Assembly (NCBI GenBank): GCA_013265495.1
Contig: MU057637.1
Location: 1-64,000, forward strand
Length of the DNA stretch: 64,000 bases
Reading direction: 5' to 3'
Origin: Vicugna vicugna
Taxonomy: Eukaryota
Shown: positions 4,011 through 62,539 of the stretch, one piece after another
Position numbering within the stretch: the first letter of the stretch is position 1
Layout: each line of letters opens with the position of its first letter
Notes under the pieces: generated by a model
Databases searched by the model: none
Told to the model about the DNA's origin: nothing
What the model saw: the letters and a program-made list of their open reading frames with translations, nothing else
Position numbers and translations under genes: made by a program

Positions 4011-4049
4011 GTGTAGATGATTTCTCTAGAGGTAGGAGGAGAAAAGGAA

Positions 4050-6224: not shown

Positions 6225-6229
6225 TCAAT

Positions 6230-13358: not shown

Positions 13359-14226
13359 TGTGGCTTTTCACTAATCCCATTTCCTCCAATGAAAGAATCA
13401 GGTAAATACAATAAAATACTAAGAGGAGCAATGAACACAACCACCACATCTCCACTGCCACAGCACCTTTCTTTTAAAGCACTTTAGCTTCTGCTGTCCC
13501 ATTTGAAACATTCCTAATATCTTAATTAACAAGGTAATATGTATTCTTTTTATTCTATATTTATTGAAGTATAGCTGATTTACAATATTGTGTTAGTTTC
13601 AGGTGTACAGCATAATGACTTGGTGTTTTTGCAGATTATACTCCGTTATACATTATTACAAGATATTGGGTTTAAATCCCCAGGATGCACAGTAAATCCT
13701 GGTTACTTATCTATTTTTTATACAATAGTTTGTACATCTCCTTTTAAAATTACAATCATGTTGAGTTTATACTGTATTTAATAATTATTTTATGTGGCTT
13801 TTCACTAATCCCATTTCCTCCAATGAAAGAATCAGGTAAATACAATAAAATACTAAGAGGAGCAATGAACACAACCACCACATCTCCACTGCCACAGCAC
13901 CTTTCTTTTAAAGCACTTTAGCTTCTGCTGTCCCATTTGAAACATTCCTAATATCTTAATTAACAAGGTAATATGTATTCTTTTTATTCTATATTTATTG
14001 AAGTATAGCTGATTTACAATATTGTGTTAGTTTCAGGTGTACAGCATAATGACTTGGTGTTTTTGCAGATTATACTCCGTTATACATTATTACAAGATAT
14101 TGGGTTTAAATCCCCAGGATGCACAGTAAATCCTGGTTACTTATCTATTTTTTATACAATAGTTTGTACATCTCCTTTTAAAATTACAATCATGTTGAGT
14201 TTATACTGTATTTAATAATTATTTTA
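13359..14226. repeat. Tandem duplication, 2 x 434 bp, apparently identical; each unit contains a short antisense L1 3' end
   Basis: Units 13359-13792 and 13793-14226. Identical ORFs at 13590 and 14024 (offset 434). Confidence 0.97.
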
Positions 14227-15135: not shown

Positions 15136-16198
15136 GTGTCTCCCCCTTCCCTGGGGCCATGCAGGGAGCCCAGCAGACTGACCAGTGACAGCCACAAGAC
15201 TTCACTGACTCAAAGTAAATTCCATCTCATCATTAAATTTGTCATTTATTTTAAGGTGTCAAGTGGGAAAAACTATTAAGAAGAAACTCAGCAGGACAAT
15301 GACCGCACGGCCTCACAGAAGCAGAGCCTGAGGAGGAGACCCGGACCAGGGAGATGTGGGTGAGCCAGCAGCGGGGCTTCTGCTCAGGTCAGGATGCAGC
15401 CCTCGTCCTGCCCTCCTTCCCCTCCTCCTTTCTTTCTTCCTTTCTAATAACTGTATTTGGAAAGGTTTCTTCTGCTACAGTTTGCCTGTTCCTTTTCGTT
15501 CCATTTAATAGCAACAGATTTCTTATACTGGTGTGAACACCGTCAGTATCTTTTGAAGTGCACCGTGCTTTTCCTGTTTAGGAGGGTCAGGCACATTCAC
15601 ACAAAGGAACCAGAGATTATCCAATCTGCAGCAACTTTGTAATGAAACCCAGGTGCTAGGTCCTCACCGAAGGTAGGGGAGCATCAGCCCTCCTCACGGC
15701 TCTGCGGGGAAGACAGTTTTGTGGCTCTGGGCTGCCCCTCCAGTGACACAATCACCACCGGATGGGGCAGCCGAGGCCTGAGCTGACAAAACCTGCCTCA
15801 GTCTTCGGGAACTTTCTCACTTACCAAACATCAGCCCCTTCCCCTCCTTTCTTGCCTTTCCATGGACCAGAGAGGACCGGTGGCATGGCTGGGCCATCAA
15901 AATACTACGAGGGGCGCCCATTCTTTCTCCCAGAAATGACTTCCTGGAACCTGTCCAGCTCTTATCCAGCTGCTCCCTAGTGTTTCTGGTCCATCTGACC
16001 CCTGTAAAGTCCATGCGGACGCCCTCCAGGCCTTGAGAAACCCCCAACCCCCACCTGTGTCCACCGCTGACCATAGGGTGCACCTGAGACTGCAGACTGT
16101 TTTTTGGGGACTATATGAAGAGTTGCCAGAACTCAAAATGTACAATCCAGTTTTGCAGTATGTTCTGGTTATATGATCCAGACTTTAGAAGACTGTTG

Positions 16199-16975
16199 GG
16201 ACAGCTCGCAGAGCCGCAGTCCAGTGGGCAGCCCGTGCCCCGAGCTATCCGCCTCCCCCCGCCCGCCAGCCCGAGGCCTCCCGAGCCCCGCCCGAGGCCC
16301 CAGCAGCAGCGCCGGGGAACACCTACATCCACAACCTGCTCGTGGACGGACCGGTCAGGGTGCGCCCGTGGTGTGCTCTAAGGACTCACTCCACATCTGG
16401 GCCGCCAGCCCAGGAAAACCTTTGCTAGCATCACACCAGCTGAGGTTGGTGTCCTGATTGGCAAAGACTGGTCAAGATTTTTCATGAGTGGGTTAAGGCT
16501 TGGGGGCCAGAAATGTTCTGTGATCCAGGACTCACTGCTGCAGGATGGAGAATTTCCCATGGATCTTTGTACCAAGATCATAGGTGGCACACTCACCTTC
16601 AATATCATGGTCACCGTGACTGCCAAGACGCTAGTCCTGCTGATGGGCAAAGAAGGTGTCCACGGTGGTATGATCAAGAAATGTTATAAAATGGCCTCCC
16701 TCCTGTGGTGTTCCCAGTACTGACCTCATCTGTCCCTTCCCCCTACTGCTCCCCACTGATTTTGCACCCCTCTCCTTCTCCCCACATACACCACTTTTAT
16801 TTTTGTGGCCATTACCTCACATCCCTTTTTGCTGCCCAAGCCACATGGTCAGAGGTCAGGGCTGGATGGACACCTCCCTCTTCTCATACCCTTCCTATGT
16901 GTGGTTGGATAACTTTTTTGTTTTTTTGTGAATTTTTCCTGAATAAAAAAAGATTCTACCAAAAAAAAAAAAAAA
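16199..16975 (+). pseudogene. PFN1: Processed pseudogene of profilin-1
   Basis: Intronless. ORF 16484-16723 reads [26 protein letters not shown]...[32 protein letters not shown]. The N-terminal codons lack the ATG and are frameshifted. GC-rich 5'UTR; AATAAA 16942-16947; poly(A) 16961-16975; TSD AAGACTG(T/C)TG at 16189-16198 and 16974-16983. Confidence 0.97.
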
Positions 16976-19900
16976 GACTGCTGATCTGAGCCAAAAATAT
17001 GTAATTCTCCTTTAATGTCAGATGCTACCTTTTCAGTAGCCTTCCCCTAAGTTGCTTTCCATTCAATTGCCTGCTAGCCCTGCCAGCCCTGCCTCCCCAC
17101 TCATGAGATTCACTTACCTGTGGCTCTGCTGCACAGGACTGGGAGTACTCAGACCATCCAACTTTCTCCTCCAGGATGGCAGACATCTCTGACCATTCGA
17201 CTGCCATATTCCGTGATGTTTGGGTTCAAAGTATATTTGTGATGGTGGCGTTTCCAAGCTCTATGTAGGGTCTACCTCCATGCTTAAAGTCATAGCTGGG
17301 TCTGCCATGAATGTCCCCCTAATAAGCCTAAGGTTTCTTCTTAGATTTACACAAAATGTACATTTTTGTTAATCTATGACTTTACTTCTTTATTTCTTGC
17401 AGTGTCCATGTTACATATTTTTAGATAAAAGACTCAATTTCAATTAAAATTAACTCAAACATATCTCCTTTACAATAGTATCAAGAAATTGGAAACAACC
17501 TTGAAATATGGCGGTCATAATCTCATGGGTTTTATTCTCTTTTTTAAGCAAAATAAATCATTATCTCCTCTCTTCCCAGTGGGGACACGGGGAGGGGAGC
17601 ATTAATCCTGAATGTTTACTTATGTCTAAAAAATAGCTTTTCAGAGTGGGTGAACAGACTAAATGTGTTTATTTTTTATAAGAGGTAGGAAATTAAACTC
17701 CTGAAGACAGTTTCTTTACCTTGTTAATTTAATTTATGAAAAAAATGTGGTGAAAATTGCAAATCTTCTTCAGACTTCTCAAAGATATTGGGACAGGTAC
17801 CTCATCACAAAGGTCATCACCAATGGTCTTTCTGATTCTAGAGGAGGAACCTATTATGAAATAGTAAGCAATTAGTCAATATTATTATTTTATTCTGAAC
17901 CTTTGAGAATTAAGACATAAAATGAGAACAATTTCCCTTTGGTGCGGTATTTATCCATAATGAGAAGCAACTAATCCATCCATTTACTAGACCCCTGGAG
18001 GGCGGAGACATGTGGGTTGACTCTGAGCAGCTGCTGAGCTGATGGAAATGATGCTACTGTTCCCACGTGTCTCACTGTGCTCCCCCTAGACATTTGGTTT
18101 TCATGACTCTCTCTGAAGTTAAAGAAAGTCATAATGGATCATCACCGCATTTAGATTGTGATTGTGATTCCTCCCACCTAGAAATAATGTGGCTTCCCAG
18201 GCTCAGGCCAAAGGACTCTCTCTCTCCCCAATACATAGGGGTAGGTTAGTGGGGGAGTGGGACACCATTACCCCATGCATAGAACAATCATTTTAGAAAT
18301 GTTTTAACTTATAACTTAAACCATGAGATAATAAAGTGTAACAGAAACATTAAAGCCAATGGTTTCAACAACTAGCTATGCAACACTGACTAGTGCAAAA
18401 CATCGGTCTGATACAGAAAACTGATAACAACACCCACCCTGAAAGAATTTATGATCTAGTAGGAGAAAGAGAAAGAGCAGGTATTCAACAAGTAAGTAAG
18501 CATATAAGTAAATACACAAATACTGAAAAAATGAATTCTCTACTAGAAAGAGGAGCAAAGAAGAGCTGGCATTTCCAACTTACAGCATCAGAAGGCACGG
18601 AAGGCTTGGGGATATGAGCATGAAATAAAGTTGAATTGAATGTTCTTTTGTCCCTTTTATAGTTTTCCCAAATGTAAATGGATTCCTTCCATAAGGCAGT
18701 GTTGTTATAGAACTAACGCTACTTTTAATATCCCTAATTATCAAATGTGGAACAATGCAGATGGCAGGCTATTCAGGATTTTTCTTCCTTTGGCTTTCAC
18801 CGTGAGAACCAGATCACTGCTCATTAAAACCTCCTGCAGAGGGCAAACAAGGGAGGGGAGGGAGCTGAAATTCCTTTTGGAATTTTTTGGGAAGCATTGG
18901 TGAAAGTTTTGGTGGAATTGTAGAAACAGTCTCTTTATACTGTCTTCTTCTTTCAAAGAAACCTTGCTTCCCATCAGTGAGATTTATATGGAGACTAGAA
19001 AATGGCATGTGTGCTTTGACTTTCTGGATAAAGGAGTCTTCAAAGAAGGACTTCAAGAAAATAAAGTTTTCTCCCATTTCATATCAAATATTAATTTATA
19101 TTTTTCCTCTTGAAATTGATTTTAGAACCGAAAACAAACCAAGATAAAATATTTCTCAACTAACAGAACACATCAGTATTCACAGAACTAGCAGAATCTG
19201 TTTTTATGTTAAAATTGATGGACCTTAAATTTAGTAAAGAAATAAACAAGTGAGAGCAACAAAAAAAATCTAAAAGTAAAGTTAAAACAACAACAACAAC
19301 AAAGAATGACTTTAGAATAGTGATTCTTATCAAGAAAGGGGCATGAATTAAAATGATGAAATCTGTGGTGAAAATTTCTGAAGCCCCAGATGCTAATCAG
19401 CCTCCTCATCCACTGCACCCCCACGGCCATTGCCTGTAACACGGAGAACAGCTTCAGACAGTAGCAGGCTGCACGTGTAAGCAGTATGGGGGCTTCCAGA
19501 ACTTTATTTAAACCCAATAATATAGAACTGATTCAATAAAAGAGGACAAGTGAGGGGAGGAACAACTGTATGGGCATTAGTGATGACTAAGTTTTGGCTG
19601 TTTAAACAAATAGTCCACAAAAATGAATTCTTCTGTGAGATAAAGACTTCTGTTTTTATTACTTTTAAGGCTTTTTGATGGTTGTGACGTTCCTGGGCTT
19701 CCAAGATACATATGAAAACTGTCTTTTTATACACTAGATTGGAAAACAGAACAACTAATAATGATGATAATAATAGGTATTAAATCTGGGTACTACACGC
19801 AGCATACGAGGACGTGCTTCACAACAACAACACGAGAGCTAACGGGCATTGAGCATTGTGATGTACAGTCACCGATGAGCAGTTTTACATGTTTTAATTC

Positions 19901-20059
19901 ATTTATTCCTCACGACAATTTGTTACACTTGTTGGATCAATGAGGAATTTTGGGTGGATGGTGTCACATTTTAATCTAAATTTCTTGTGTAAGTCAAATA
20001 CAATTTCCTCCTACCAGGATTTTGATTGTCTGATGTCAATTTATATGCACAGTATTTTT

Positions 20060-20345
20060 TATCTCCCATTTGAAAACATAGTGGTAAAATACTCATAACA
20101 TAAAATACACTATCTTCACCATTTTAGGTGTACAGATCAGTAAAGTTAATAACAAGTACATTGTTGTAGAATCTTCAGAACTCTTTTCAAATCATCTTAC
20201 AAAACTGAAATCCCATACCCAGTAAATAACGCACAGACCCACCATTTTCCTTTCTGTCTCTATGACTCTGTCTACTCCAGACACCTCATACAAGTAAATT
20301 CACACAGCAGTTGTCTTCTTGTGGCTTCCTTATTTCATGTGTCAC
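20060..20345 (-). mobile_element. Old L1 3'-end fragment
   Basis: gtggtaaaatactcataacataaaatacactatcttcaccattttaggtgtacag... is a typical antisense L1M 3'UTR. Confidence 0.7.
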
Positions 20346-21619
20346 AGAATTTTTGAAAACGTATGAAACTATGATAAGGCAAATATATTATTTTCATGTT
20401 ATAAGAAACATATCTTCATTTTATAAGAAGGTTTTCAAAATTATTACTATCTCCCAAAAAGGGTCATGACAAGTGGTGACTTCTGTGCTTTTTTTAACTC
20501 AAATAATGATTTTAACTTACTGTTATTTTTTTTATTTCTAATCATTTACTTAGAGCAAGAAAGGTTTTAAATCAACACATGCTACCAATAACAAAATATA
20601 TATCAATAGTATACACTTAAATTAAAATTTATTATCAATAAGATATTTGATACACTTTGCATTGTCAGTTTCTCAAATGAAAACTTTGAGACACACTTTA
20701 CTATTCTTTATGAAGTAGATATTATTTTCACAAAGAAGTGTATTCCTAAATATTTCTAAGTGTTAATTTTACTTATTTCCTTTCTTTTTTAATAAGTGGG
20801 AAAATTTTCATCAATTACAGATACCACAAACCCAGCTGAAATAAATATTATATATTCCCAAGGCAAGCAGTCATCACCATTTTGCATTTACAATTTAATT
20901 CTTAAACTAAAATTTGAAAGCACCAAAGTCAAATAAGAACCTCATGTTTTTGTAATCTGTCAGTTAATTTTATTATTAAAAATTAGTTTTCTTCCTTTAC
21001 AAATAAAATTAAGTAGACTGTGGCTCTTCCTTTGTAAAAATAAACAACAAAAAAAAAAACCCTCCAAAAAACTAATAATGTGTCAGTTCAGATTTCAAAC
21101 TTCAGCAAAACTTTTTAACAAAGCTCAAATGTTCTTTTCACCATTTTTCTTTCATGACCTCTGATGTTGGAAATGTAAATTGACATTATAAATATCAACA
21201 GAAATAATGCCACAAATTCCATTTACCTTGTTACTGAAGATCATTTCCCTTCTTTTCATATTTATTTACCTTGAGAATGTAACGTTATCAATTATTCAAC
21301 AATATAGAAAGAGTGTTGGACAATTTCATACTACTTCAAAGCATAAGAAATCCCTCTTATTCACAGTGTATAAATCTCAAAGTGTATGTGTGCACATTAT
21401 ATACAGTAAAATGAACATTTCATTGATATAAAAACTTACTCCTCCGACTACTAGCTTTCAAATGGAAATTGAATAAAGTTTGGCTAAGTTGAAACAATTA
21501 TTTTAATTTACAAAACCATCATTTTTCCTAAATCCTGTACATATGAATCAGGCAGCAAAATTGTATATTAAGATCTGAATTATTTGAATTCATTACTTAA
21601 ATTTAGTTAGTAAGACTAC

Positions 21620-24130
21620 TGTCTTGACATGAATTCCTCCCAAAAAGGCCCCCTCACAGGGAATTTCTCTGGGAATGTGACCCCAAAGAGTAGGAATAAT
21701 GAACAAGGTGGTGAAAACAGGGAAGAATTAAATGCTGAAGTAAGGTTATGTTATCACAATGACCATGGCCGACCTGTGCTGGAGTCCACAGGCTTTCCGG
21801 GAGGCCTCATCAAAGCCAGGAAATGAAGAGAAGGCTTTTCCCACAGGCTTCCACCTGCCGTGGATTTAGTGGCCCTTGGACTTTGACTATCACATAAGGA
21901 CTTGTAGGCCACACATTCCGCATCCTGCATTTCTTGTCAGAAAGCTTCCAGGAAAGGAAAGGAGAGGCTCACACCTTAGCCAGAGTAAGGGACTCCCCAA
22001 TTGCACCTGCAGGAAGCTGGTCAAAGTCTCCAAGAACTGGTAGTAGGACAGGTGCCCGCAGTAGGACACGGGGCCAGGAGGGTGCTAAGTGATGCTCACA
22101 GTGCGTGCTGGTGTACTAGAGCCTTAGCACTCCTCAGACCCACCTTTTCTCTCCCTTAGCTCTAATCTGCCCCTGAGTCTCCTTCCAGGTGCTGGCCAGC
22201 TGCAATCTCCATAAGAGGGTTTGTGGAACATCCCGGTGGCCACAGCTGCTCCCAAAGCCTTGCTGAGAGTCAGCATCTTTCCTCCCCACCACTAATTCTA
22301 AATTTCTCTCATCTTTGGCCAGTGTCTCAGCTGATCTAAGGTTGCCTGCCTGGTAGAATGAGCCAGACCGTCTTCATCTAGGTTTGATTTGCTTTACCTC
22401 CATGAGGACATAGTTGCTGTCAATGCCAAGATACCATTATCACCTGGCACAAAACACCAGGGGAAGCATCAGTGAAGTTTGTGGCTATTCCTTCCTGCCT
22501 CCACTATACAGCAGTGATCCAGGTTCTTCACGTTAATAAGGGCAAGTTAATCTTGAAAATATATTAACATATTAATTCTCTTTTGCTTGATGATCCAGGA
22601 ATGAGAAGGCCAATCACTGGAATCAGGAGCCCAAAGTGGCTAGATGATAGTCAGATCCTGTGGAATGCTTATGTTGTCCTCTGGTGGAAGTGTTTTCCTT
22701 CTTGGGAACCAAGACCTCCAATCCAGCAGAGCCTAAAGCTTCAGACACAGGAAGCATAAACTTTGAAAGTGAGTCACTAGGTGTAAGGGTAAATGGGGCC
22801 ATTTGTACTCCCACCTCTTGGTTCCTGACAGGACAGCACCATATGTCAGCCATCGATACAGCACACATAGCACACACTTTCCCCAACCTGAAACTTGAGC
22901 TGAGCCATCAACAGCTCATCCAACCACTGTATCAGATCAACTCCTTCTAGGTGATGAGACAGATGGTAATCCCAGTGGAATCTGTGCTCATGCACTCCTA
23001 GTTTCACAACTTTGTCATAAATTAATCCCTCAAACACAGTGTTGTAGAGGATGTTGTGCCAATAAATAAGGCATTTTGTAAGCCCCAAATTCATAGTGCT
23101 GGTGGAGGCTTTGCTGGCAGAGAATTAAAATGCATTACCATTGTAGGTTTACATTCTAGCAAGGATGAACTGTTGCCATCTCTAGAGTGGAAGGGATCCG
23201 ATAAATTTAATCTGATAGCAAATGGCTGGCTGGTCTTCTTGTGGGATAATATATCACAGACTCAGGACCAGGCTTTACTGTTGACAAGCTGGGCACTCAG
23301 AAAGGAGCAGGGTCTAGATCTGCATTAGGGATAGGGAGCCCAGTCTGCTGTGCCCACGGCTCTTCCCAGCCATGGTGTCATATCTGTTCATGCGCCAATC
23401 GTCCAAACAGGGGTCTTCTAAAGGTTAAGGATGTAGTATAGTTCACATTCACAGAGCAAACTAAGCTGTCCAGTTGATTGCTGAGAGTCTTCTATTCAGA
23501 GAGTGCTCTTTGGTGGGCACTAACACGAGACAATGGTCTGCATGCTATACTCTTTCCCCTTCCTTTTCTCTGTTTTCTTTTTTTTTTTTCCCCTGGCTTT
23601 ACCAAAGCCCCTGACAAAAAGTCATTTGTTACTTCCCAGTAGTCTATACATATCCATAGCTCAGGCCACTTCTGCCTTCATATACTGTAATGTATGAATT
23701 GTTCTGTTTGGAGCTCTTCCCACTGGAAGGATCTCCCTTTAGGGATGCGTTCCTTTAGGGCGAGCTCTGACTGCAGCTGTAGTGTGACAACAGTTCATTT
23801 ATGGCTGCCATCAGTATGCCACCCTAACCCACATGTTGAACCAGGCCAGCATTTTTTTTTCCTCTTTAATCAGCACAGCTATTTCTAGCTACCATCATAT
23901 CTGCTGGTTCACATGGCCTGATATTCCAGGAAACTTGCACAACTGCCTGGGCCTCCTGAAGACCTTTTTATTTATCTGGGCATCATTTAAGTCCAATAAG
24001 TGGTTGGTACAGTTTTCTCATAAGGCCCTTGGTAGAAGGGTAGGTAGAATGTTTATAATTATTCTTATGTCATTACAGAGTCCTTCCTCACGGGCATTCA
24101 CCCTCCATTTTAGCCAATGATATCTAGGTC
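21620..24130 (-). mobile_element. Degenerate ERVL provirus remnant: pol/integrase and dUTPase-like region (about 22160-24130), with a probable 3' LTR (about 21620-22138)
   Basis: ORF 22846-23094 (GLTKCLIYWHNIL...FHWDYHLSHHLEGVDLIQWLDELLMAQL) resembles ERVL integrase (GLTECLIHRHGIP...IHWSYHVPHHPEAAGLIERWNGLLK). ORF 22623-22886 contains LPVSEALGSAGLEVLVPK. Purine tract GGGAGAGAAAAGGTGG on the minus strand at 22140-22155. Confidence 0.8.
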
Positions 24131-25068
24131 TGTTCAAATTAAATAAATCCAGAAATTGGGTGCAGGCCCTGGGTTTTGCATTGTGACAGTTGATGTTAGG
24201 AATCTGCTCACCATGTATTTACTGGGGAAAAATCTGTGTATAAATAGACCTTCACAGTTCAACCCCTGTTGTTCAAGGGTTCAGAGTATTGACAAAAGAC
24301 CACTGGAAGGATGAGAGAATGGAAGTTGGATAAGCAAGGGGGTGAAAACAAGCTTTGAATTCTGATTCACCCACGACTTTGAGCAAGTTACTTAATTTCT
24401 GTGCTTCACTTTATCTGTCTGTAAAATTGGGGGATAACAGAGACTTTATGCAGCTATTCACATGGATTTTTCTCACTGAAAGTGGCTGGTTTCTCTTCAT
24501 CAACCTTTGCTGCCTCATCCTTTAGGTGCTTTAGGTCAAATTTAGCCTTTATTTCCTCTAGGAAGCTTTCTCCGTCGTCCCAGCGGTTGAGATGGCTTCC
24601 AATGTCTTTCAGCCACATGTGCCTCTCCTACAGTAGCTGTTGTCATACAGAATTGCAATTGTCAGATCACTTATCTATCTGCTCCACTAAGACCAAACAC
24701 TCTACTGGAGCAGGGATTATGACTATCCTAGCCCATTTAGCACGTATTGGAAAAAGTATATAAATTTCATTGAACTCTCTTGTAGATTGTAAGGATTAAG
24801 TGAAGTAATGTGTGTACAGCTCCTCGCAACTTAAGTGCTCAGTGAATAGTAGCTTTAAAACAGCTCCATTATTTTTCACATCTTTATCATAGGGCACAGT
24901 TCCTGGCTTGTACACATTTGTATCTCAATAAACACTTGCTGAATGAGAAGTTCAGGACAGACATGATGAGATCCTTAAGTATGTCTGCCAACAATGATTT
25001 CAACTGCTGTCAATTTTCCTTTCAGTATCCTAAATGCTGTCCTCTGAAACTCCAGCGTGCATTAAGTT

Positions 25069-25129
25069 NNNNNNNNNNNNNNNNNNNNNNNNNNNNNNNN
25101 NNNNNNNNNNNNNNNNNNNNNNNNNNNNN
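25069..25129. other. Assembly gap
   Basis: Run of N. Confidence 1.
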
Positions 25130-25579
25130 TAAAAATCCAATAATTGTAAGATGTCACTGTAGAATGGAGAAAAAGGAGAGGTAGCGGGAAACCACAGAGG
25201 TGCTGTGAGGTAAGTAGGGCTTGGGGTGTCTCTCTGTATTTTCTTTCTTCCTTTCTTCCTTCCTCCCTTCCTTCCTCTCTTTCTTTCTTTTATTTTTTAA
25301 CTTTCACTTAATTTTATTTTGTTTCGGAGTTCTACTGAGTTGTCTTCAGACACCTTCCTTTCATATCTTAAAAATTGTATCACAAGGATGTTAGGAGAGA
25401 ATTCAACAGCCTAGGGGGTCGCAATAAAATAAAGCACATAGTTCATATGATACGGAGTACTTTCTGAATTTAGACGTTATCCCTCCGGGTGAATGGAGGA
25501 AAACTTACACTTGAGGGTCCCTTTGAATAAATGGAGTTCAAAACTTCCCAGTCCCTCCGTCTTTGTTCCTCTTTTCCTG

Positions 25580-26372
25580 GGTTCGGAGGCCGCCTCTACC
25601 GCGGGGCGCACCTGCCACTCTCACCGCCGGCCAATCGGCGGCTCCAGCCCGCAGGCGGCTCCGCGGAAGGAAGAAGGGAGGGGCTCGCAGCAGCCAGCGG
25701 GCGGGGCGGGGGGTGCTGGGGGCGGGGCCAACGGGCGCGGGTGGCTGCGCGCGCTGCCGCCGCTACCGCGTCACCGGAGTGCAAGTGTCCGTGTTTACGT
25801 CCTAGTGGAGCCTAAGTCAGCAGCCGACTGGCGGCATTGTGCCAATACTGAGGCACAAAGTTTAGGAGACACGACCCTCCGTCAAGCCAGCTCCTGGCTG
25901 CCGGGAAGAGGAGGAGGAGGGGCGGGGAGATCGGCCTCGGTACCAGCGGTGGAGACACACACACGGTTCCCGACCACCTGCCTGGCCCCACGGAACCGCG
26001 CCTCACCTCCGGAGCCCCGCAGGTGCAGCACCGCGGCCTCGCCCCACGGGGTGGCTAGGGCGGGCGCCAGGCGCTGCGGCAGCTCGGGGCTTGTAAACAG
26101 ATGCCCCCGCACGTGACCGTGTGAACTACTTGCTCCTGGGGGCGTGTTCTCTTTCCCGCGAGCTGCGCTACAAAGGAGCGGGGCGGTCGGAGGGCAGAGA
26201 GGCGGGCGAGCAAGCAGGCAGAGCCCCCCAGCGTTTTAGGATGGCTGAAGGCGCCTGGCGAGGGTGAGCGGTGGGGGGCGGGGGTGCTGTTGGGCACGGC
26301 ACAGCCAACGGCTGAGTCCGTTGGCGGGCAGGGCTGGTGACCCCTTCCCCGGGGCCTGGCTCTGGAGCCACC
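25580..26372 (+). promoter_or_regulatory. CpG-island promoter and JMY-like 5'UTR
   Basis: High CpG content; CCAAT 25631-25635; GC boxes 25699-25706 and 25719-25728; FOX-type TGTTTAC 25792-25798 and GTAAACA 26093-26099; E-box CACGTG 26110-26115. Ends in Kozak GAGCCACC|ATG. Confidence 0.85.
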
Positions 26373-27459
26373 ATGTTTTTGGCGCTCAAGGAGAGTCTCC
26401 AGTTGGACTGGGTGGCCTGGAGCTGCATGTGTTCTACAAGCAGAAGAAGCACAAGTTCATCTTCATCAACTCCTGGAATGAGATTGAGGGCAGTTTTGCC
26501 ATAACCTGCTACAACCGGATGGCCCAGAGGCAGAGGAGCGGCACCAGCGGTCAGGTGGGTGCGGGATGGGGCGCCAAGCCTGGCACACCCATGTCCAACA
26601 GGACCTGCAGGCTGTATAGCCCAGCAGGCAGGGGTTGGCCTGAGGCCACTGCCTCAGTGACTCAGGACAGAAGCCCTGGGCCCAGAGGCTCCCGTCCTGG
26701 ACCCATAGGCTCCCATCCTGGACGGAGGGTGGCTCTCCATGGAGCATGTGCAGCCTTCGAGGGGACCTGCTGCCCTGAAGTTTGTCTGGAAAAGAGGTGG
26801 GAAGCCCTATCTGGATCCTGGTGTGGGCCAAGTCCAGCCCGATCCTGAGCACAACTGCAGGTAGAGATGTGCCGCTGTGGCAGCCCTCTTGGCGCCTATG
26901 GAGGCCCAGGTGTCCTCAGTGCGGGTAGTGAGCGCCTGCAGGATGGTCACCTAGATTGAGGTGCTAGAAATGGTGAGGGAGGGTGAGGCGGATCCGGCAT
27001 ACCTGGGACTCTCGGTCACGAAGCTTTGGACGCCCGCCGTGGAGCTGGAGTCCCCGCCAAGGCGTGAAGCTGGGCCGGGCACTTCTTCCAGGATCTGCGC
27101 TCAGTGCACCAGCAGCCAAGCCCCGTGAACTCGCAGCTGGAGCCGTGCTTGCTGGTATTCCTCGAGGAGATCTTGGGCATGTGGACAGTGCTATTTGGGG
27201 GCGTCCCGGAGGTGACTGAGCAGGAGATCGCCACTGTTACTGGGAAAAGGGAAATAAGAATTACCTCGTTTCTTAGTCACCCCTCAAAGAAAGAATTTTT
27301 AACGAGAGAAAGAAAGTGTGATATAAGTCAGATTTTTATTAGTAAAATAAAAAGGTAGTAAAAATTCGTATATTCCCAAGAATTTGGAGCTGGCCAATCC
27401 AAGAGGGGAAAAATGGCGCTGCTTCTTTGTTTTTCTGTCTTACATCCTGGCTTAGGGGC

Positions 27460-27492
<33 letters not shown>

Positions 27493-28048
27493 TTGATTGA
27501 TTGATTAATGGCTCAGGTTCTTTGAGTGAACAAGCTGATTGACAACTCAAGTTCCTTATGCTCTGGTTGACAGCTCAGGTTCCTTGTGCTCTGGCATGCC
27601 CATCCCCTTTTGGGCAGGTTTTTACCCATGAAGCACATAGAGAAACCAATGGGAGGGGGCTCAGACTGTAATGTTAATTACATTACAATGAGCATTGATT
27701 GAAGTTATGCCGGGTCCTTGTCTTATATGCAGCCGCAGCATTTTGATTTTAACTGGCTTCTTTTGCTGGCCCTCATTTAGAGAAAGTAAAAATTTCTGGA
27801 AACCCTAATCCTGAATGCATACATACTGTTATTTCCTGGATTGTTCCTTCCCCCTTCCTCTCCCCCTGCCCAATGCTCATTTCTATCTAACTACCTACCA
27901 TCACCGAATTCAGGTCTACTTGGGCCACGACCTGGACACCTGTGGCTGGAAGATCCTCTCCCAAGAATTCTTCATGGAAACCCACGACCGGGAGTATTAT
28001 GAACCCTTAGCAAGCTGCAGCAGGAGGGCCAGGAAAGGTATCTAGGAG
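26373..28048 (+). pseudogene. JMY: Non-processed, disabled copy of JMY coding exon 1 (junction-mediating and regulatory protein)
   Basis: Translated pieces are colinear with recalled JMY N-terminus: MFLALKESLQLDWVA / HVFYKQKKHKFIFINSWNEIEGSFAITCYNRMAQRQRSG / SPAGRGWPEATAS / EAQVSSVRVVSA / VNSQLEPCLLVFLEEILGMWTVLFGGVPEVTEQEI / QVYLGHDLDTCGWKILSQ / RARKGI*E. It ends at donor GAG|GTAAGG (28048/28049). It carries frameshifts, stops (e.g. TAG 28043-28045) and an LTR insertion. Confidence 0.95.
27235..27900 (-). mobile_element. Solo LTR inside the JMY exon, containing (TG)n and (GATT)n microsatellites
   Basis: TGTTAC...TACCA termini; imperfect 4-bp TSD CCAC/TCAC; AATAAA on the minus strand near 27335-27340. 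JMY codons stop and resume at the two ends. The minus-strand start (TGGTAGGTAGTTAGATA) resembles the LTR at 41578. Confidence 0.88.
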
Positions 28049-28366
28049 GTAAGGACCTAGTCTGGGCTCCAGTCATAGCTTTTGGTTACTCACTGCCAAA
28101 GGCTGGAGCCTAGGTCTAGGCTGTGCGCTTCTGGGACACTTGTTTTTCTAGACAAGGGAAAAGGAAAACCTGCTTGTGTATTTTCAATTTCTTGTCCGAT
28201 GGTGGATCACAGTCCCTTATCCTAACAACAGAGTTCTTTCTCACAGGTTTGCGTTTCTCTCACAAAGCCCACACTGGGCTTTACACATGGAAAGTGCAAA
28301 TTGGAAACCATCCAATAAGTTATTTTTTTTCCCCAGGCTTCCCCTTGTAAAGCAGAAAGCTGAAAG

Positions 28367-29385: not shown

Positions 29386-29721
29386 TAAAAATGATCCTGG
29401 AATTATATAGCTAGAAGTTTTAAACTTTAAGAAGCCAAAAAGAAAATTCTACATGTTACCAATATTTGCATACCGAATTTGTTATAAATTGCTATTTAAA
29501 ACAAAAACTATGGTAGAAATTTCTGTGGTTTATGACACTGGCATTTCATCTCTAAAAATGATCCTGGAATTACATAGCTAGAAGTTTTAAACTTTAAGAA
29601 GCCAAAAAGAAAATTCTACATGTTACCAATATTTGCATACCGAATTTGTTATAAATTGCTATTTAAAACAAAAACTATGGTAGAAATTTCTGTGGTTTAT
29701 GACACTGGCATTTCATCTCTA
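29386..29721. repeat. Tandem duplication, 2 x 167 bp, one visible mismatch
   Basis: taaaaatgatcctggaatta(t/c)atagc...catctct starts at 29386 and again at 29553. Confidence 0.95.
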
Positions 29722-29758: not shown

Positions 29759-30045
29759 TATTATGGACTGAATGTTCACACGTTCAAATTCTATTCTGCC
29801 CCTCCACCCCCTTCCTTTTCCTCCTTATGAGATGCTCAGAGGTACTAAGAGGTGAGGCCTTCGGAAGGTGATAAGGATTAGATGAGGTCGCGAAGGTGGA
29901 GCCCTCCTGAATGGGATAAGTGTCCTTATAAGAGTCATCAGTCTGCACCGCTTTCCTTCCGCCCTTCGTTCTGGAGTGAGGCCAGACCCAGGCACTGAGC
30001 AAGCAAGACTGCGAGCTGAGATTCTGGAGCTGCTGCCACCACCGC
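29759..30045 (+). mobile_element. MaLR (MLT1-like) LTR fragment
   Basis: tattatggactgaatgtt...ggtgaggccttcggaaggtgataaggattagatgaggtc...gtgtccttataagag is typical MLT1 wording. Confidence 0.7.
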
Positions 30046-30049
30046 CAGC

Positions 30050-30760
30050 ATGACAGCGAGGGAGCACCCGAGGGACCCAGCCCCTGTGCGCTGGCCCAGC
30101 CGAGACCCGCGCCCAACCTGGGGCCAGCGGGAGCCCCGCCCCCGTCTCCCCCTCCCCTCCCCCCGGCAGCCGCAGCTGCACAGGCCGGAGCCCGAGCCGG
30201 CGGCCGGGGGCCGGGAGGCGGCTACCTCGGGCGGGCCTAGTCATCGGCTCCGTGGTGAGAGGGCGCTGAGAAGGGGCCGGAGCTTCTGTCTCATCCTGGG
30301 GCGTGGGGCAAGGGACCCCCAAGGTGGAGGGACGGGGTCCCAGCCGCAGCGACACCTGTGGGAGCCGGAAGCCGGGGCGGCGCCAAGCGGAGCTGGCTGG
30401 ATCCCCCACCTCGGTGCCATCTCCGCCACCCTCCTGCGTCTATAGCATCTCGACCCTGAGTATATGAGCCGGGACCCCAAGTTCGGCCAACAGTCCCCAG
30501 CCAGGGGTGTGGGCGGGGACCCCAATATGAAGTAGTGGCCCGGGCAGCGGGATCAGCAGGACCGGCGCCGCCATCCTTTCCTTCTCTCCTACTCCCCTCT
30601 GCCCCCTTGGGGGTCTTCTCCCTCAACCAGTCACTGGACCCTGACTCCTCGGCAGGACTCCGGGAGGAGGTCTTAGGGCCCCACCCCCTACCCCAGCCCC
30701 GAGGGCGGCGGGTTTGGGGGGACCTGGAGGGCCGACTGCAGCCTTCGCCCAGAGGGAACT
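30050..30760 (+). promoter_or_regulatory. CpG island, probable promoter and first exon of an unidentified gene with a long first intron
   Basis: CpG-rich with GC boxes (ccccgccccc near 30133). Candidate donor GTG|GTGAGA at 30254/30255. Downstream DNA is T-skewed and most L1/SINE inserts are antisense, as expected for a plus-strand intron. Confidence 0.6.
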
Positions 30761-33700
30761 TTATTAAAATCAAAGTACAGAGCATCCCAAACCTGACTGT
30801 CCAGGGACAAGTGGACCAGGACCGGCAGAAGACCCAGCCTGAAGAGGCCCAGAAAGAGAAGAGGAGGGAAGTGGGGCCGCTGCCTCCTCTGCTCTGTCGG
30901 TGATGAAAAGACCTGGGTGGCTGCCCGGCTTAGCGGTACCAGCCCCGCTTATTCCTCAGTAAGGCGCAGGCCCTGCCGCAGCTGCCGCCTCCATCCCGAG
31001 GAGGAAGGGAACCAGCCCACTTACAGCGCTCTGGCTCTTCTGTAAAGTGTGAGTGGCTCTGGGAAGGGGAGTCGAGGGATGGGGAGGAGGAGGGTGCCTG
31101 TGCATCCTGCGGTGTTTTGCCGATGTTTTCCTGGAGTGTTGGGATCATATAGATGAGCCGGGGTACCTGAGTCCTCACTATGGGCAGAAGGCATCAGGCA
31201 GTCCCATGTTTTGTAACATTTTAGTTCTCTGTGGTGTGATACGCAAGCCTGCAGGTTTCTTTTTGTGGAGTTCTGACTTCTGCAGAGTGGACACTTGCAT
31301 GTTTCTGGCCATTAATTGGTAAAAGGAAACTGAGGAAGCCAGAGCATATGTGCGCACAGAGGACATCTCTGTGTATGTAGCTTTTCCTGGTACATCGGGT
31401 GGGAAACAGCGCTGTAGGTTTTGTTTCTGGGCAACTATTACTTGGGTCCCCAAATGGAAGCCTCTGACTCTGTGAGGCCCTGAATGTAAAATTTATTTTC
31501 TTTTCTGCAGTCTTCCTTGAGAGTTTTCATTTCGGCACAGGAGCTTTTTACCTTCTCATTTCCTGGGTGCAGTTCCTGTGTATCAGCAGGACGTGGTAAC
31601 AGAGATCAGTTACTCAGGAAACTTGGGGTTCTTAGGAATCATAACTGATTTGGGGGAGAGCATTTTGTACTTTAACCAGTTTATTAAAGACGTATTTCAT
31701 TTTTCCGTAGCCAAATTTTTTTTTCCTGAGTAGCATATGTCCTAATCGACAGCATTTTTTAATTGGTGGAATGACTTGTGACTTGTTTCAGTTGTCTTCT
31801 CTATCAAATGAGAATGATTTTTTATCCCCTTTTGTTACTTTAAAGGAGAAGCCTACAGAATCTTTGATTTGTATTTTAAGTATCCTCTCAGAGTGCCAAA
31901 TTAAGGTGCAGGAAGATAATGAATATTTTGTATATTTATGCAGAATTTAAGTGTTAGGCATAGGTGGAATTTTACATAACAACGCAGACAGTGCCATACT
32001 GAGGATCACAGGCCCCCGGAAAGCTGTGTGGGCTGAGTTCTGAAGCCACTGCTGAGAGAGGCTCTGTGGAGTGAATGCAAGCCTGGGTCATCTGTGTTAA
32101 CTTTTCCATTCAGGACCTTGATCAAACTTATTTAAAACTTCCTCAAACACTTTTTAGCCTGTACTTTTTTCTTCTAAAGTGACAAATTCTACAAGTTTTT
32201 TAGCCCTCGATTAGCAATTCATTTATGTATCCGAAACCTGTCTCTTTAAAGTTCCAGGACAAGTCCTGAGCGTGTGTTTTGAGAAATGCTAAAATGAGCT
32301 GGAGTTCATCTTTTCCTGGTTTTGTAGATTTTCATTATTCCTCTTTACCATCATCATTCCTGACTGTTTTTGTCTGTTTTACAATCACTTTGCCCTCCCC
32401 TGGAACTTCTCCAGCTGTTTTATTCTTCTTTATATGCCTTGTTCTTGTTATGCCTTTGTTATGAACCTTAAATTCTGTCTATTTTAAATAGATGCTGACA
32501 TTAAATTATTGTGTAATGGATGTAATGTTAGATGTGAGATCAAAGACAACTGTTGCTGGACCTGTTATTTTGTGACCATGAGGAAGTCATGTATCCCATG
32601 TTCCACAAAGATAGGAAGAGAAATCTAGTCCTGCATAGGCTGCTTTTGGGGGGTAGGAAGGGAGGACAAACCAACAAAATAGTTTGAGTGTAAATTATAC
32701 TCCATCAGAGTTTCTTAGTAAATTTAAGACTTTTACTGCTTTTACTATAGATTGGTTAAAACTCATGTCAGTGTTTTATTGCATATTTATTTAGGAGCAA
32801 AGAAACAACAAAGTAATTGGGGGTCCCTGCCTTTGAGATGCTTTTACTTATGAATAGCAGAGACAATGATACACAGATTGCACAAAACTGTAGGGAAAGG
32901 GAAATGAACCAGTTTTTAATCTATGACCACTATATGCCAGAAAGTTTTTGGTATATTATAGATGTAAGTGTGTTTGTACATTTTTCATTGGGGAAATGTT
33001 GATATTGGACTACACAGAACATATTGGAGTGTCTGAGCCAGTGGAAGAAAAGAGCAGCTGGAGATAGTGTTGAAGACTTTTGGAACTGGAGGATGTGGGG
33101 AGCAGAGGTAATTAGGAAGATGGTTGATGGGAAATCACAGGGAAGTTGTTGAGTAGCTTAGGGTCAGTTTGTGCTTGTGTGGGTATGTGTTTACAGCTCA
33201 AAGAATCAGTTGAGAACAATGTTCCTGAAAGGGTAGCTTAAAACCATAGAGAAATTGTATTTTAAACCAAGACATTATACTTGGATTAGGATTTTGTTTT
33301 TCTAGGGAGCCAAGATTTTTATACCATGGTCACTGAAGAGCAATACAGATGGAGGAGTGAAAAAGGTGTTTCCAATATATTAGCATGGTGCTAGTGGTTT
33401 CTGATACAAAGTAATTCAGAAATGGGGCAGTGGACTTTGTTTTGGACAATAAATTTTCGAGTTGAAGTTGGATACTGATGAAATCTCAAGACAGTAAAAT
33501 AATGAGCAATATGCTGAAAATGTAGAATTGGAAGTCATTATCAAAGTATTAAAGTTTCTCAAGAGTGCTGATGGAGAGCAAAGAGCTGACAAATGGGTAT
33601 TTTTACTTGGGAGAGGAGAATCTGTTAAAGTTAGCAAAGGTACAGTAAGAACAGAGATGGATGAGACTCTCCCTAAAATAGATATTTCTAAAGTGAGTAA

Positions 33701-34254: not shown

Positions 34255-34334
34255 TCTTGTGTTCCTTAGTTTGAATTCACCACCTCCTTTGTAGTCTTGT
34301 GTTTCTTAGTTTGAATTCACCACCTCCTTTGTAG
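34255..34334. repeat. Tandem duplication, 2 x 40 bp
   Basis: tcttgtgtt(c/t)cttagtttgaattcaccacctcctttgtag occurs twice. Confidence 0.95.
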
Positions 34335-34787
34335 CTTCTTTGGCCTTTTCTTAGGAGTGACTGTTCCAATGGCAGAACTTCCAGGTAAGATCTATTTAGA
34401 TGGGGAGCTAGATGTAAGGTGGTTCTGGAACAGATGCCATATGGGCACCTTCCCTCCTCATCCTCTATCTTCCACAACATTTTTATGCAAGTGAAATCAT
34501 GGTTTGATGAACTTTAAAGGGCAGTCTTTTTGGGTTAACATAATTTACTAGTAAAGGCAGTGGGAAGGGTGGGACTCTGGTAGTTGGAAATGGTAACGTC
34601 ATGTGCTTTGCCCTGGCAACTTTGGGATTGATATGAGATGATTAAAAAGACTTAGGAGTGTGCATTTGTGTTTGACACCAGATGAGCTAGCAGCCCATGA
34701 CTAGGCTAGCAGCAGCCCAATGCATGTACATTGGAGATGGTACTTGGAGAAGTCTTGTGCTGCCTCTGACATCTCGTTGTGTAGAGG

Positions 34788-35015: not shown

Positions 35016-35514
35016 AGACAACTGCCAAGTCCACCTGCATGCAGTCTGAGAATCCCTCTACTGCAAAGCTGAGATTGGCTATTTCAGGTGGCCTCTGTTT
35101 TCTAAGTGAGATGTGTTCCTTGGGGGCTGTCTTAAAATGATTCTGCAGAGTCTACTGTTCAAGTTACTTTTGCCTCCATAGTAATGAAAACCATGGACTG
35201 AGGAACAGGGGCAATGCCATCTATGAAGGGATGCAGCCAAAAAGTAGGGACACTTGCATTTCTTGTTCAAAGATACCATAATATATAAGGTAATACATAG
35301 TGATGTAATGGCTGTGCATCATGGCCAGAAGTGTCTTTGGAGTATCTGAAGAAACTTCTGGGTATAATTTTGAAAGATTCTGAAAATACGTTGTAAAGCA
35401 CTTACTTTAGAAGTGAAATTAGAAGTGCTTATGGTCTGTTTGAACCAGATGGAAGTATTCGTCAAACTGTAAGAACACTGAGGTTTGATACTTAAGGCGT
35501 CTTAGAGCCTTAAC

Positions 35515-35667
35515 CTCCTGCAGCGCCCGGCGCAGCAGCGCGCGGAGTCCCGCTCCGCCGCCCGGTCCTGCTACCGGCGGCTGCTGTTTCCTAGGCGCCC
35601 CGCACAGCGTGTGCGCGTGCGCGTTAGAGCGCTGCCGCAGCCTGGGGTGACGGCAGCGCGGGGCCAA
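35515..35667. promoter_or_regulatory. Small isolated CpG-dense element with an NRF1-type motif
   Basis: About 150 bp, GC/CpG-rich, in AT-rich DNA. TGCGCGTGCGCG at 35612-35623 matches YGCGCAYGCGCR on the minus strand. Confidence 0.55.
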
Positions 35668-38524
35668 TTATTTCCTAAGTGACTCTATCTCACAAGTGTT
35701 GTTTAGAAAGGATAATTCACCTTGGTCAATTTTACATCATAGCTAGCACCACAGCACTCGTTTCATATGTCAACAAATAGCTGCGTTGGATGATGGTATA
35801 TTTTTGCCTGGTTTCATAAATCTTATTTATCTTTGGGTTCCCCAGTTTCCCTTAGGGGAAAGGATTACTCTTCCAATAGTGACACTTTTTAGTTCGTGTC
35901 AAGCCTGCTTTTACTTTACATAGTATTTCTACACATGTAATAGATACTTCAATTCCTCTTCCTTTAAGAAAGGTGCCTGACAGTTTTATATAAACCGACA
36001 TTTTTAGTATACCTTTTAGAAAGAAGGTCACTGTAAAGTTACTTTCCCATTCATTAGGAGATGATTCTTTCCTTGCTGTTTTTGAAGACTTTCTTTTATT
36101 TATTTATTAATTTTTTTGCCTTTTTAGGTAATTTGTCATTCTCAGGCTTAAGGATGGGTGGCAATTTAAAAGACACAAGGTGTTCCTCTCATATCTGCAA
36201 ATATCCCAAATAGAAATGTTCCATATTGTTGACACATTCAGTGGACCAGGGAAAAGAGTGGAGCATTGGTTTATTTTTCCTTTTTAGTGTAGTTGAATTT
36301 TCATTACAAACAGATGAGTAAAGTTGTTTTCAAATAATGAACTCTTGCTGTTCAACCTTTCTCCTTTGAGACTTTTTCCCACTAAGCAGAAAACCAGCCT
36401 GTCTTATTCCTTCATGTAGTTGTAGGTTTTCCTTGCTTTCTCCTGACCCCTCCTGGGCACATTCTCATGCTCCCTTTCATATGTGTTTAGAGTGTATTTC
36501 CTTAATCAACATGACATTTCCTGAACACTATGGGATATATATTTTCTAATAATTATACTTTTACCCACAAGTATATTTAAAATTTCCTCCTATTCTACCT
36601 TCAGAATTTATGAATTATTTGAGGGAACATCTGTCCTTGATCTGGATACTGAGAGACAGACCAATGTATGACAGTTTTTCTAAAATATTCCCTTAAAAAG
36701 TTTTGAGTAACAATTGATTTCTCTAAAATTGTAAGTTGATACAAGTAAATACAAGATCCTATGTTTGTGTTGTGCTATCCTGCAATGCAGACTTTTGAAA
36801 AATAATACAAATGCACAAGAGTCCTTACTGCTTGAGTATCTTATATTTTGCTTTTCCCCCATCACCTTAGGGACAGCTGGCAGATCAGTCAGATAGCATG
36901 AAGTGTCTGTTGCTTTGCTGTGTGGCCTCTGCCCCCTCTTTTTCCAGCTGAAGGTTGGCTAATGGAGACCTGGGTGGCTTCAGGCAGGAGGCAGCATGTG
37001 CTGAGCTTGTGTCTGTGGGAGCCTGAGTCATGCTGGATGCTCCTTTCTGCATGACGGCTATGAACTTAGGGAATATTAATGGTGCAGAATATTTTTCTGT
37101 CACTTAGCCTTTCCTCTGAGATGATCACCCTAGGATAATACATTGAATGCATCAATATTTTGGGCCAAATATGAAGTAGCAAGACACATTGCTGGTTTGT
37201 TTTTGGAAGAATGTATGTATCTTATGAGGCTTTTAAAATGTCATGCTTTTTAGGTTGGTTAAGGGTCTAATAATAGACCTTTGCATGACATCCTCTATGT
37301 CTGAGAAGGACTTGCCTCACTAGTAGTAGTGGGTAATTTGCAACAATCTCATGTTTGGAAGCACTATGCGTATCTGGAGCCAGCACCGTGTTGCTAGTTC
37401 ACTTCTCATTTCCCTCATAAAATATATTCACACTGTGGAGGCAGAAGATTCATTAGTAAGGCAGTGTCATTCTTAGCTATGTGGCCTGGAATGAGTTACT
37501 TACCCTTTTTCGCTATGGGCCTCATCACATGTGGATGGAAAACCATGTCCTTCCCAGGGCTGTTAGGACTAAATGAGATAATATAAAGCACAGGCAGAGC
37601 TCTCCCAGCCCCACGCATAGGTCAGCGTGGCCCCGCACTATTAATGTGAGTTAAAGGTCATTTACAGTGTGCCGCAGACAGAAGGCTAAGGTCAGGCTTT
37701 ATGTTGCCCAACACTTAAACTCAGCCCTGGAGTTTGACAAATAAAACTGAAATAATTCTACAGTGTTTTCAAAAGCATCTGTACTAGTGTGTGATTCATT
37801 AACATATTATTTAAAAATCTTAAAAAGTAGAGAAATGACAGAACTACTGTGCTTATTATTTACAGAAAAGAAAGACTAATTTGAACATAATTAGAGTTTG
37901 AATTCATCTCCAAAGACCTCCGTAGTGCTTAGATCAGAAAGAATGTTTTTGATGAATTCATTGATTAGCTCTGAAAGTGACTTTGGTTTAAATTGTCCGT
38001 TTGGAAATATCTATTTTTTTAAACATCCTTTGGTTTAATGCTTCGAAATGAAAAGCTTAAAAAAATACAGGAAGAAGTTTAATAAGTTTAATTTGTATCA
38101 TTACATCTCAAACTATGATTGATGGAATTTTATTCAGGTGGTTTTGTTGTAACTGAATTTTGATTTTCTCCTTTTCCTAAAATGATGTGAAGGTGGGGTG
38201 GACATTCCCTTTTCATGCTTAATATTTATTAAATACAGGATCCGTTTTCAGAAATAATTTTCCTTTCCTTCCTTAGATTTGGCATAATCAGTGTTCAGCT
38301 GACAAATTCAAGAAATAAATGCTTCTTCTTCTTTTTTTTTTTTTGTATTTGGGAAGTATTTCTACTTTGAGAGCAATATGAATTTGCTTTCATAGTCTGT
38401 TTATTTAATAGAGTTCTATATTTAAGACAAGTGTATGAAAAAAATCCAAAGGCAGAAAGAAAAGATTGAGATATGTTTCTTAGTACTTTTTATCTTGCCA
38501 ACTCTTGTCCTCATTCCCTGACTG

Positions 38525-45194: not shown

Positions 45195-45365
45195 GTTTTT
45201 TGTTTTTTTTTAATTTGTGTTTTTATTTATTTATTTATTTGGGGGGAGATAATTAAATTTATTTATTTATTCATTTATTCCTTTACTTAAGGAGGTACTG
45301 GTGATTGAACCCAGGAACATGTGCATGCTAAGCACACACTCTATCACTGAGCTATGCCCTCTCCC
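45195..45365 (-). mobile_element. tRNA-derived SINE (camelid-like)
   Basis: ggaggtactggtgattgaacccagg...gcacacactctatcactgagctatgccctctccc with T-rich tail; TTCAGTG on both flanks. Confidence 0.85.
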
Positions 45366-62480: not shown

Positions 62481-62539
62481 AACAACTTAATACATGCTAC
62501 TTTTCATAGCTTTAGAATGCTGAGCACAAATATTTTTCA

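Follow-up and report, generated by a model that had tools for sequence, protein, structure and literature searches.

The 64,000-nt stretch of vicugna DNA analyzed here (contig MU057637.1, hereafter the window) carries a copy of the front end of JMY in which, on our reading, a promoter that stayed active, CpG decay of the coding exon, and insertion of a long terminal repeat (LTR) together led to a new intron and a chimeric non-coding RNA. We give this whole scheme a probability of about 0.72.

Origin of the locus and its sister copies

Sequence comparison identifies the locus as a DNA-level, 3'-truncated JMY duplicate comprising exon 1, the beginning of intron 1, and, probably, the promoter region. 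The decayed exon 1 runs from the ATG at 26373 to the exon-1 donor at 28048 and is interrupted by a repeat at 27235-27900. Positions 28049-28281 (plus strand) represent the start of JMY intron 1, as they match the read-through tails of the intact JMY exon-1 ORFs P0036 and P0223 as well as record 15 of run X18, an LTR-free DNA contig with 28 differences from the window over 28040-28281. Because the exon-1 donor and intron 1 sequence follow exon 1, a processed pseudogene (retrocopy) was rejected in favor of a DNA-level duplicate. Homology to the JMY 5' UTR covers only ∼27 nt before the ATG (P0174), and the rest of the promoter was assigned by contiguity. A metagenome scan with cattle JMY exon 1 (551 candidate stretches) returned two loci only and no mammalian JMY promoter; L001 is a distant vertebrate JMY piece without a promoter, 74-76% alike to the window and with a CpG observed/expected ratio (o/e) of 0.87 over its first 600 nt, and L002, a weak match, was set aside.

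Four of 24 public runs (X4, X15, X18, and X21) were aligned on 25140-28360. X18 is a DNA run; X15 is not recorded as RNA and may lack independence from the window; X4 has coverage in the intron and upstream DNA as well and may contain DNA; and X21 contributed 116 placed reads from the ∼1% of the run that was read. No camelid full-length JMY was present among the matches listed (best 120 of 361) or in the cluster look-ups, and cattle JMY was therefore used as the reference. Two LTR-free DNA contigs (X18 records 11 and 15, depth 45-57) are 82-88% alike to the window and join 27226 directly to 28040, from which we infer that an intact JMY parent lies elsewhere in the genome; the DNA distance to this parent is ∼17% in the single stretch measured. 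The main look-alike contigs in the same run have depths of 220-250 versus 45-57 for the parent-like ones, which suggests a duplicate family of 4-5 copies, a rough figure because contig depth does not equal copy number.

When 90 residues of the remnant served as a protein query, the matches fell into two RefSeq clusters, whose models come from Camelus bactrianus and C. dromedarius. The camel models listed (25 of 29) disperse the copies over at least six Bactrian and at least four dromedary contigs, and the window matches the camel models at 55 of 61 first-exon residues. The duplication would have taken place in a camelid ancestor, with later multiplication on several chromosomes. The main sister-copy contigs are not equally distant from the window along their length: the difference is ∼3% over 25328-27263, 0 of 203 letters at 27568-27770, and 3 of 314 at 28047-28360, which suggests gene conversion or mosaic contigs. 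Three further ORFs, all unnamed (P0180, P0181, and P0202), resemble a decayed JMY exon 1 but lack the camelid junction; P0181 has His47>Tyr and Ala96>Val in common with the window. A JMY front-end duplicate, either separate or related, may exist in other lineages.

CpG island, transcription starts, and decay of the coding exon

The preliminary description of this DNA had pictured a CpG-dense, probably active promoter beside a coding exon decayed by CpG loss. Both the dense stretch (25580-26330, 77 CpG, GC 0.71, o/e 0.83) and its contrast with the coding part (26373-27230, 32 CpG in 858 nt, o/e 0.41) were borne out. A sliding scan placed the island at 25451-26360 (910 nt, GC 0.67, 82 CpG, o/e 0.80), where it covers the bidirectional promoter and the 5' UTR of the duplicated front end; it passes the CpG-island criteria (at least 200 nt, GC >0.55, o/e >0.65), and the 500-nt bins of the window mostly have o/e values of 0.0-0.4. 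Intact CCAAT, GC-box, FOX, and E-box motifs had been claimed for the promoter. When 25580-26372 was compared with 1000 dinucleotide shuffles (nine motifs tried, P uncorrected), CCAAT (2 vs 0.30 expected, P 0.03), the GC box (7 vs 3.0 expected, P 0.03), and the FOX-type motif (2 vs 0.013 expected, 0 of 1000 shuffles) stood above the shuffles, but the single palindromic E-box (P 0.17) is within chance; no TATA motif occurs in this stretch. The predicted CCAAT box at 25631 and GC boxes at 25699, 25704, and 25720 (25631-25725, plus strand) lie 173 to 84 nt before the RNA 5' ends.

These 5' ends form a sense transcription start cluster at 25804-25807 (plus strand) defined by 15 + 7 raw X21 reads with tagged ends, and first-mate plus-strand depth in X21 rises there, at 25804/25807, from 1.4 to 23.9. 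The tag is one that we take to be the 10x 5' template-switch oligo. The barcodes at 25804 and 25807 agree at 0.96 and 1.0, and being near-identical they reduce the 5' ends to perhaps 2-3 molecules only. The starts fall inside the island, at the level of the family and for few molecules; depth in X15 is zero upstream of 25896. On the minus strand, one X4 contig reveals a divergent spliced RNA with its first exon at 25509-25673, a GT-AG intron at 18834-25508, and a next exon from 18833 leftwards, the 29-letter loose end of the contig mapping to 18804-18832. The tagged 5' ends at 25804/25807, the splice joints absent from the DNA run, and the splicing into non-JMY exons support, at the family level, the view that the promoter is active and has been co-opted. 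Sister copies account for most of this 5'-end and splice evidence, which is not provably that of the window's copy. When the window is compared with the main sister copy over 25956-26372, 3 transitions fall on 76 CpG bases versus 7 on 341 other bases (P 0.4), a weak test on a small sample with a ratio of ∼2 that uses 23 of 24 differences found in X15 record 1. This result fits an unmethylated island, and CpG density together with this small paralogue comparison suggests that the promoter may be preserved relative to the parent.

To characterize decay in the coding part, the window was compared with cattle JMY (P0221) over 288 codons conserved in at least three of six other mammals, leaving out non-conserved codons, the tandem duplication, and the LTR junction; 187 of these codons are unchanged. 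C>T changes at position 2 of Ala, Thr, Pro, and Ser codons have G as the next base in 14 of 17 cases versus 10 of 45 unchanged codons (P 2e-5), first-position G>A changes are preceded by C in 11 of 14 cases versus 8 of 76, and the pooled CpG-context changes (25 of 31) exceed a generous null of 0.45 (P 5e-5) in a test that is blind to synonymous CpG losses. Arg codons became TGN or CAN in 7 of 23 cases. An estimate of CpG transitions by nearest codon (31/133 vs 17/377 sites) was partly circular and is superseded by these context tests. Among the examples given previously, the change to NRMAQ from NRTAQ was confirmed, as was the clean R>W in GGSPWSMCSL, but cattle JMY already has Cys at the C of that peptide and Ala rather than Thr before it.

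The CpG-deamination signature is strong, but the loss is uneven and lies mainly in 26373-26900, whereas 26901-27234 keeps its CpGs (25 visible CpGs lost and 8 kept vs 6 and 13, P 0.003). The most depleted part of the old coding sequence is 26555-26900 (plus strand; o/e 0.23, 18 visible CpGs lost, 5 kept), compared with an o/e of 0.62 for 26901-27234 (plus strand). Retention in this second segment does not fit a simple distance-from-promoter model. The segment adjoins the LTR and is farther from the promoter than the depleted part; one idea is that a leftward antisense LTR promoter may be involved. The window also carries a 21-nt tandem duplication near 26695 that is not in the main sister copies.

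A new intron and its splicing routes

The locus is a case of intronization, shown for its sister copies: a 1359-nt GT-AG intron at 26555-27913 (plus strand), present in the DNA and with canonical ends, takes in JMY codons 62 to ∼291 plus the LTR and leaves the frame intact with a Gln|Val junction. Its non-LTR part, 26555-27234, aligns codon by codon with JMY exon 1, which is uninterrupted in cattle, bats, and primates. The joint 26554|27914 was found in three RNA or RNA-like runs from two organisms (depth 34.4 in X15 and 76.7 in X4, one read in X21) and was absent from the DNA run X18. The corresponding protein junction, TSGQ|V(Y/C)LGH, which skips 26555-27913, occurs in all 25 camel models listed (of 29) and in 8 of 60 library representatives. 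The RefSeq XP models are automatic predictions, whose RNA support is suggested by isoform variety and the run data. Intron depth in X15 is 15-44 versus 34 for the joint, and intron retention is thus substantial.

On either side of the intron, JMY sequence is kept as exon. The first exon piece, 26373-26554 (plus strand), holds JMY codons 1-61 with a 1-nt frameshift near 26421, and the same CpG decay made an ATG at 26519 (Thr50>Met), 36 nt before the donor, at which 10 of the 25 camel models listed exclusively start. Exon 2, 27914-28048 (plus strand), is the 3' end of JMY exon 1; it ends at JMY's own donor GAG|GTAAGG and has a TAG stop at 28043 in the window's copy. The donor AGG|GTGAGC (26261-26269, plus strand, exon end 26263) had earlier been proposed to splice out the dead coding sequence and the LTR. 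This donor is present and used: an 11-letter loose end in X4 equals 26252-26262, a unique exact match, and joins 27914, and the unnamed predicted protein P0162 implies a joint of 26263 with 26368. The route is a minor one, however; the dominant donor, missed at that stage, is 26554|26555, which keeps the first 61 codons.

From 28048 the RNA exits to 30805 (X15, P0165), ∼29990 (P0169), 55519 (camel models), 61539 (P0164), or 63572 (P0161), and with 58829 and 63405 also among the downstream exon starts there are at least six different downstream exons. The captured exon at 30781-30900 (plus strand; acceptors 30781 and 30805; P0162 and P0165) lies at the edge of a second CpG island, and the X15 loose end behind 28049 maps to 30806. 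An exon at 55519-55598 (plus strand), which has stops in the window's copy, is part of all camel RefSeq models listed (25 of 29). Further alternative exons within 58829-63634 (plus strand; starts 58829, 61539, 63405, and 63572) were located by tblastn of the camel models and unnamed proteins, and AG precedes each. The second island itself (30041-30570) contains a donor-like GTG|GTGAGA at 30253 and is probably another duplicated promoter with 5' exons, into which JMY-derived RNA splices. Exon-like pieces flanked by AG and GT were noted at 33306, 34355-34384, and 51172-51246. In X4, a 111-letter loose end that starts with GTGAGT joins at 26457 and has no match in the window; it is possibly a fragment of JMY exon 1 in another context.

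The new donor sits on the JMY Gln61-Ala62 codons and reads CAG|GTGGGT. Over 43 JMY rows, residue 62 is Ala in 34 (one misaligned, and 15 belonging to a near-identical bat cluster), Thr in 4, Val in 1, and a gap in 4. The simplest path to the GTG would be GCG>GTG, a CpG deamination, and all six second-position C>T-type changes in 26555-26900 have G as the next base. An approximate weight matrix places this donor second among the 122 GT sites in 25804-28100, with only JMY's own donor scoring higher. The residue change alone makes no intron, since the one JMY with Val at residue 62 is an intact primate gene. The acceptor AG was already there, because it belongs to the Gln codon (CAG|GTC) of a QLQ(V/I)Y motif that is invariant in 43 of 43 JMY rows. 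It lies 13 nt beyond the end of a solo LTR-type repeat inserted antisense in exon 1 (27235-27900, minus strand), where DNA contig depth climbs from ∼300 to 1100-10000 and loose ends fall at 27235 and 27890-27897; the orientation was read from TATA-like and poly(A) motifs that come in order on the minus strand. The LTR end supplies a pyrimidine tract (∼27840-27886) and a branch-point candidate, CTAAC at 27887-27891, 23 nt upstream of the acceptor, and 125 nt before the acceptor (27787-27911) are free of AG. A 4-nt target duplication (TTAC/TCAC) can be read with 6 extra letters of the sister copies. The donor GT and the LTR occur together in all copies seen at the junction.

These observations suggest the following course. 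In a camelid ancestor, a segment reaching from the JMY promoter region through exon 1 into intron 1 would have been copied and then multiplied. Its promoter kept firing both ways, which probably kept germline methylation away from ∼900 nt around the start, and the coding sequence, freed from purifying selection, would have become methylated and lost CpGs. One C>T change may then have turned CAG GCG into CAG|GTG, a good donor, and the antisense LTR, landing 13 nt before the old Gln codon, would have brought the pyrimidine tract and branch point with which CAG|GTC could act as acceptor. The resulting intron takes out the decayed middle and the LTR, and the RNA leaves through JMY's own donor into exons from flanking DNA.

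It must be asked whether this applies to the window's own copy, which could be silent or yield unspliced RNA only, with the start and splice evidence stemming from sister copies or parental JMY and the island being an undecayed leftover. The X15 junction contig shows 7 mismatches to the window in 140 letters (5%), and we attribute it to a sister copy on that ground; the X21 reads over 26100-26420 all carry sister-copy letters, only 9 of 116 X21 reads are at least 99% alike to the window, and the donor is crossed unspliced by the window-like RNA contig (X15 record 3, 26527-26853, 3 differences). Against this, X15 contigs at a depth of 22.6 match the window's private letters, including the frameshift, with the zero depth upstream of 25896 already mentioned, and both donor and acceptor are intact in the window. 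Parental origin can be set aside for most X21 reads, because only 9 of 116 are <90% alike. We consider a silent window copy unlikely, and it would not remove the family-level result.

Coding potential, known systems, and neighboring features

The product of the locus is most likely a family of non-coding, loosely spliced chimeric RNAs. The window's copy itself looks non-coding: the full WHAMM-JMY_N, JMY, and WH2 domains do not lie in one open frame, which is disrupted by the frameshift and stops. The frameshift near 26421 recurs in X15 record 2 (0 differences over 26389-26499), which makes an assembly error unlikely. In the main sister copies of organism B the frame is open at 26421, but TGG>TGA has occurred at codon 13 (26411, 24 of 24 X21 reads). 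Conservation in the kept exons does not exceed that in the intronized coding sequence (38 of 57 and 30 of 44 vs 72 of 98 conserved codons). A bolder extension of our scheme, that methylation-driven CpG decay itself wrote the gene structure, by creating the donor and the new ATG and so permitting, with a branch site from the LTR, in-frame removal of the dead coding sequence, and that the rescued transcript spread on camelid chromosomes for a function, as a short JMY-N-terminal protein or a regulatory RNA, appears quite unlikely; if true, a camelid-specific gene family was born by a two-step, base-resolved intron gain.

It also appears unlikely that a short functional protein (JMY residues 1-61, the exon 1 end in frame, and a new tail) is made, at least in Old World camels, and that the intron was selected as a rescue from the LTR. 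Its appeal is that the junction is in frame, that 15 of the 25 camel models listed are open from the JMY ATG for 148-261 aa with the frame kept across the junction, that the splice sites are common to two camelid lineages and several copies were kept, and that Pfam detects WHAMM-JMY_N (PF15920) in 26420-26554 (E 5.5e-9, 46 bits vs a cut-off of 27). This match, however, covers only profile positions 8-53 of 162, and 17 of 61 residues had changed before the window and camel copies split. The N-terminal LC3-binding motif of JMY requires W and V according to the part of the source consulted (PMC4532831), and the W-x-x-V at residues 13-16, which by our own reading of its position fits this motif, has gone from WVAV to WVAW in the camel models. 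Furthermore, both copy types of organism B have lost the frame by codon 17, two upstream ATGs occupy the 5' UTR, and the tails vary freely. We also consider it unlikely that the promoter owes its preservation to the divergent minus-strand RNA or to a regulatory role for neighbor genes, with the sense RNA as a by-product, for although a spliced antisense contig does run from the island to 18833 and the window has further CpG islands at 6261-6920 and 30041-30570, that RNA is a single contig from one run, and comparison between copies gives no sign of selection on the island (5' part ∼4% different vs 0-1% for the LTR end and intron).

Several known systems resemble parts of the scheme. The segmental duplicates SRGAP2B/C, ARHGAP11B, and NOTCH2NL are likewise 3'-truncated, keep the ancestral promoter and start, and are transcribed and spliced into downstream flanking exons, and ARHGAP11B also gained a splice-site mutation, as stated in the portion of the source used here (PMC6169893). 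The locus differs from them in having copied exon 1 only, in carrying a whole new intron inside it, in the broken frame of many copies, and in being camelid and older. Mammalian intronization has been described, in the sections of these papers available to us, for RNF113B and DCAF12L2 (PMC3002245), for human retrogenes (PMC3565874), and for CYP21A2, RPGR, and HELZ2 (PMC12124190). There too, a base change or the recruitment of a cryptic site converted exonic sequence into a GT-AG intron, the frame was kept, and retained and spliced forms coexist; in those accounts, unlike here, the substrate was a retrocopy or intact gene rather than a DNA-level duplicate with a presumed CpG-deamination-type donor and LTR-derived 3' signals. 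The term CpG is absent from the main text of PMC3565874 and PMC12124190. According to the consulted part of PMC2394776, Alu insertions in 3' UTRs trigger intronization in CWF19L1 and other genes, and as in our case an exon-inserted repeat activates splice sites and leaves with the new intron; the present repeat is instead an LTR in first-exon coding sequence, and both splice dinucleotides lie in host-derived codons outside it. CpG decay is suppressed around active start sites, hypomethylated promoters keeping their CpGs by mutation bias with no need of selection (PMC11323403, in part); the locus shows this pattern within one duplicated exon, with a second CpG-keeping patch by the LTR as a departure from it. 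With JMY (PF15920, PF15871, WH2) the locus shares codons 1-61, the last 45 exon-1 codons, the start codon, the exon-1 donor, and the start of intron 1, but exon 2 onward was not found in the tails of the models, which lack a coiled-coil or WH2 domain, and it is not a working JMY.

In the literature searched, which leaves out most subscription journals, we found neither a CpG-type donor combined with LTR 3' signals in a multi-copy DNA duplicate nor a paper describing the camelid JMY-duplicate family, which is present in RefSeq annotation; JMY is absent from the main text of PMC7830431 and PMC13751797, whose supplementary gene lists could name it. Intron gain in mammalian coding exons is rare, one survey counting 3 intronizations among 342 human intron gains (PMC12124190, from the part seen), and the locus is a rare traceable intron birth that apparently took one methylation-type mutation and an LTR. 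Both enabling changes can be followed at the single-base level, an intact parent is indicated, and several copies in at least two camelid lineages are natural replicates; for these reasons the family is an inexpensive system in which to test how donor mutation and transposon combine and to what extent a duplicated promoter protects CpGs. Camel RefSeq proteins labeled JMY-like or uncharacterized are explained as probably products of non-coding RNA, and if the family proves functional it would constitute a new camelid gene family.

The rest of the window yielded several minor observations. The CpG island at 6261-6920 has a minus-strand donor at ∼6619 and abuts an L1-like fragment (4890-6230); a Pfam scan of five ORFs at this island gave no match. 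A short CpG-rich patch (35401-35760, 27 CpG, o/e 1.02) lies in AT-rich DNA. Processed-pseudogene-like remnants of profilin (16100-16980, Pfam E 1.6e-7, poly(A) at 16961) and of ribosomal protein L10e (53300-53910, Pfam E 2.4e-9) were identified, and among 16 other ORFs scanned Pfam reported nothing but the profilin and RPL10 remnants. Perfect or near-perfect tandem duplications at 13359-14226, 29386-29719, and 34255-34334, with spacings of 434, 167, and 40 nt, respectively, may be assembly artefacts. Rfam returned two tRNA-like matches only (45290-45361 and 62595-62666), none in the JMY locus, and both look like tRNA-derived SINEs, presumably the camelid SINE.
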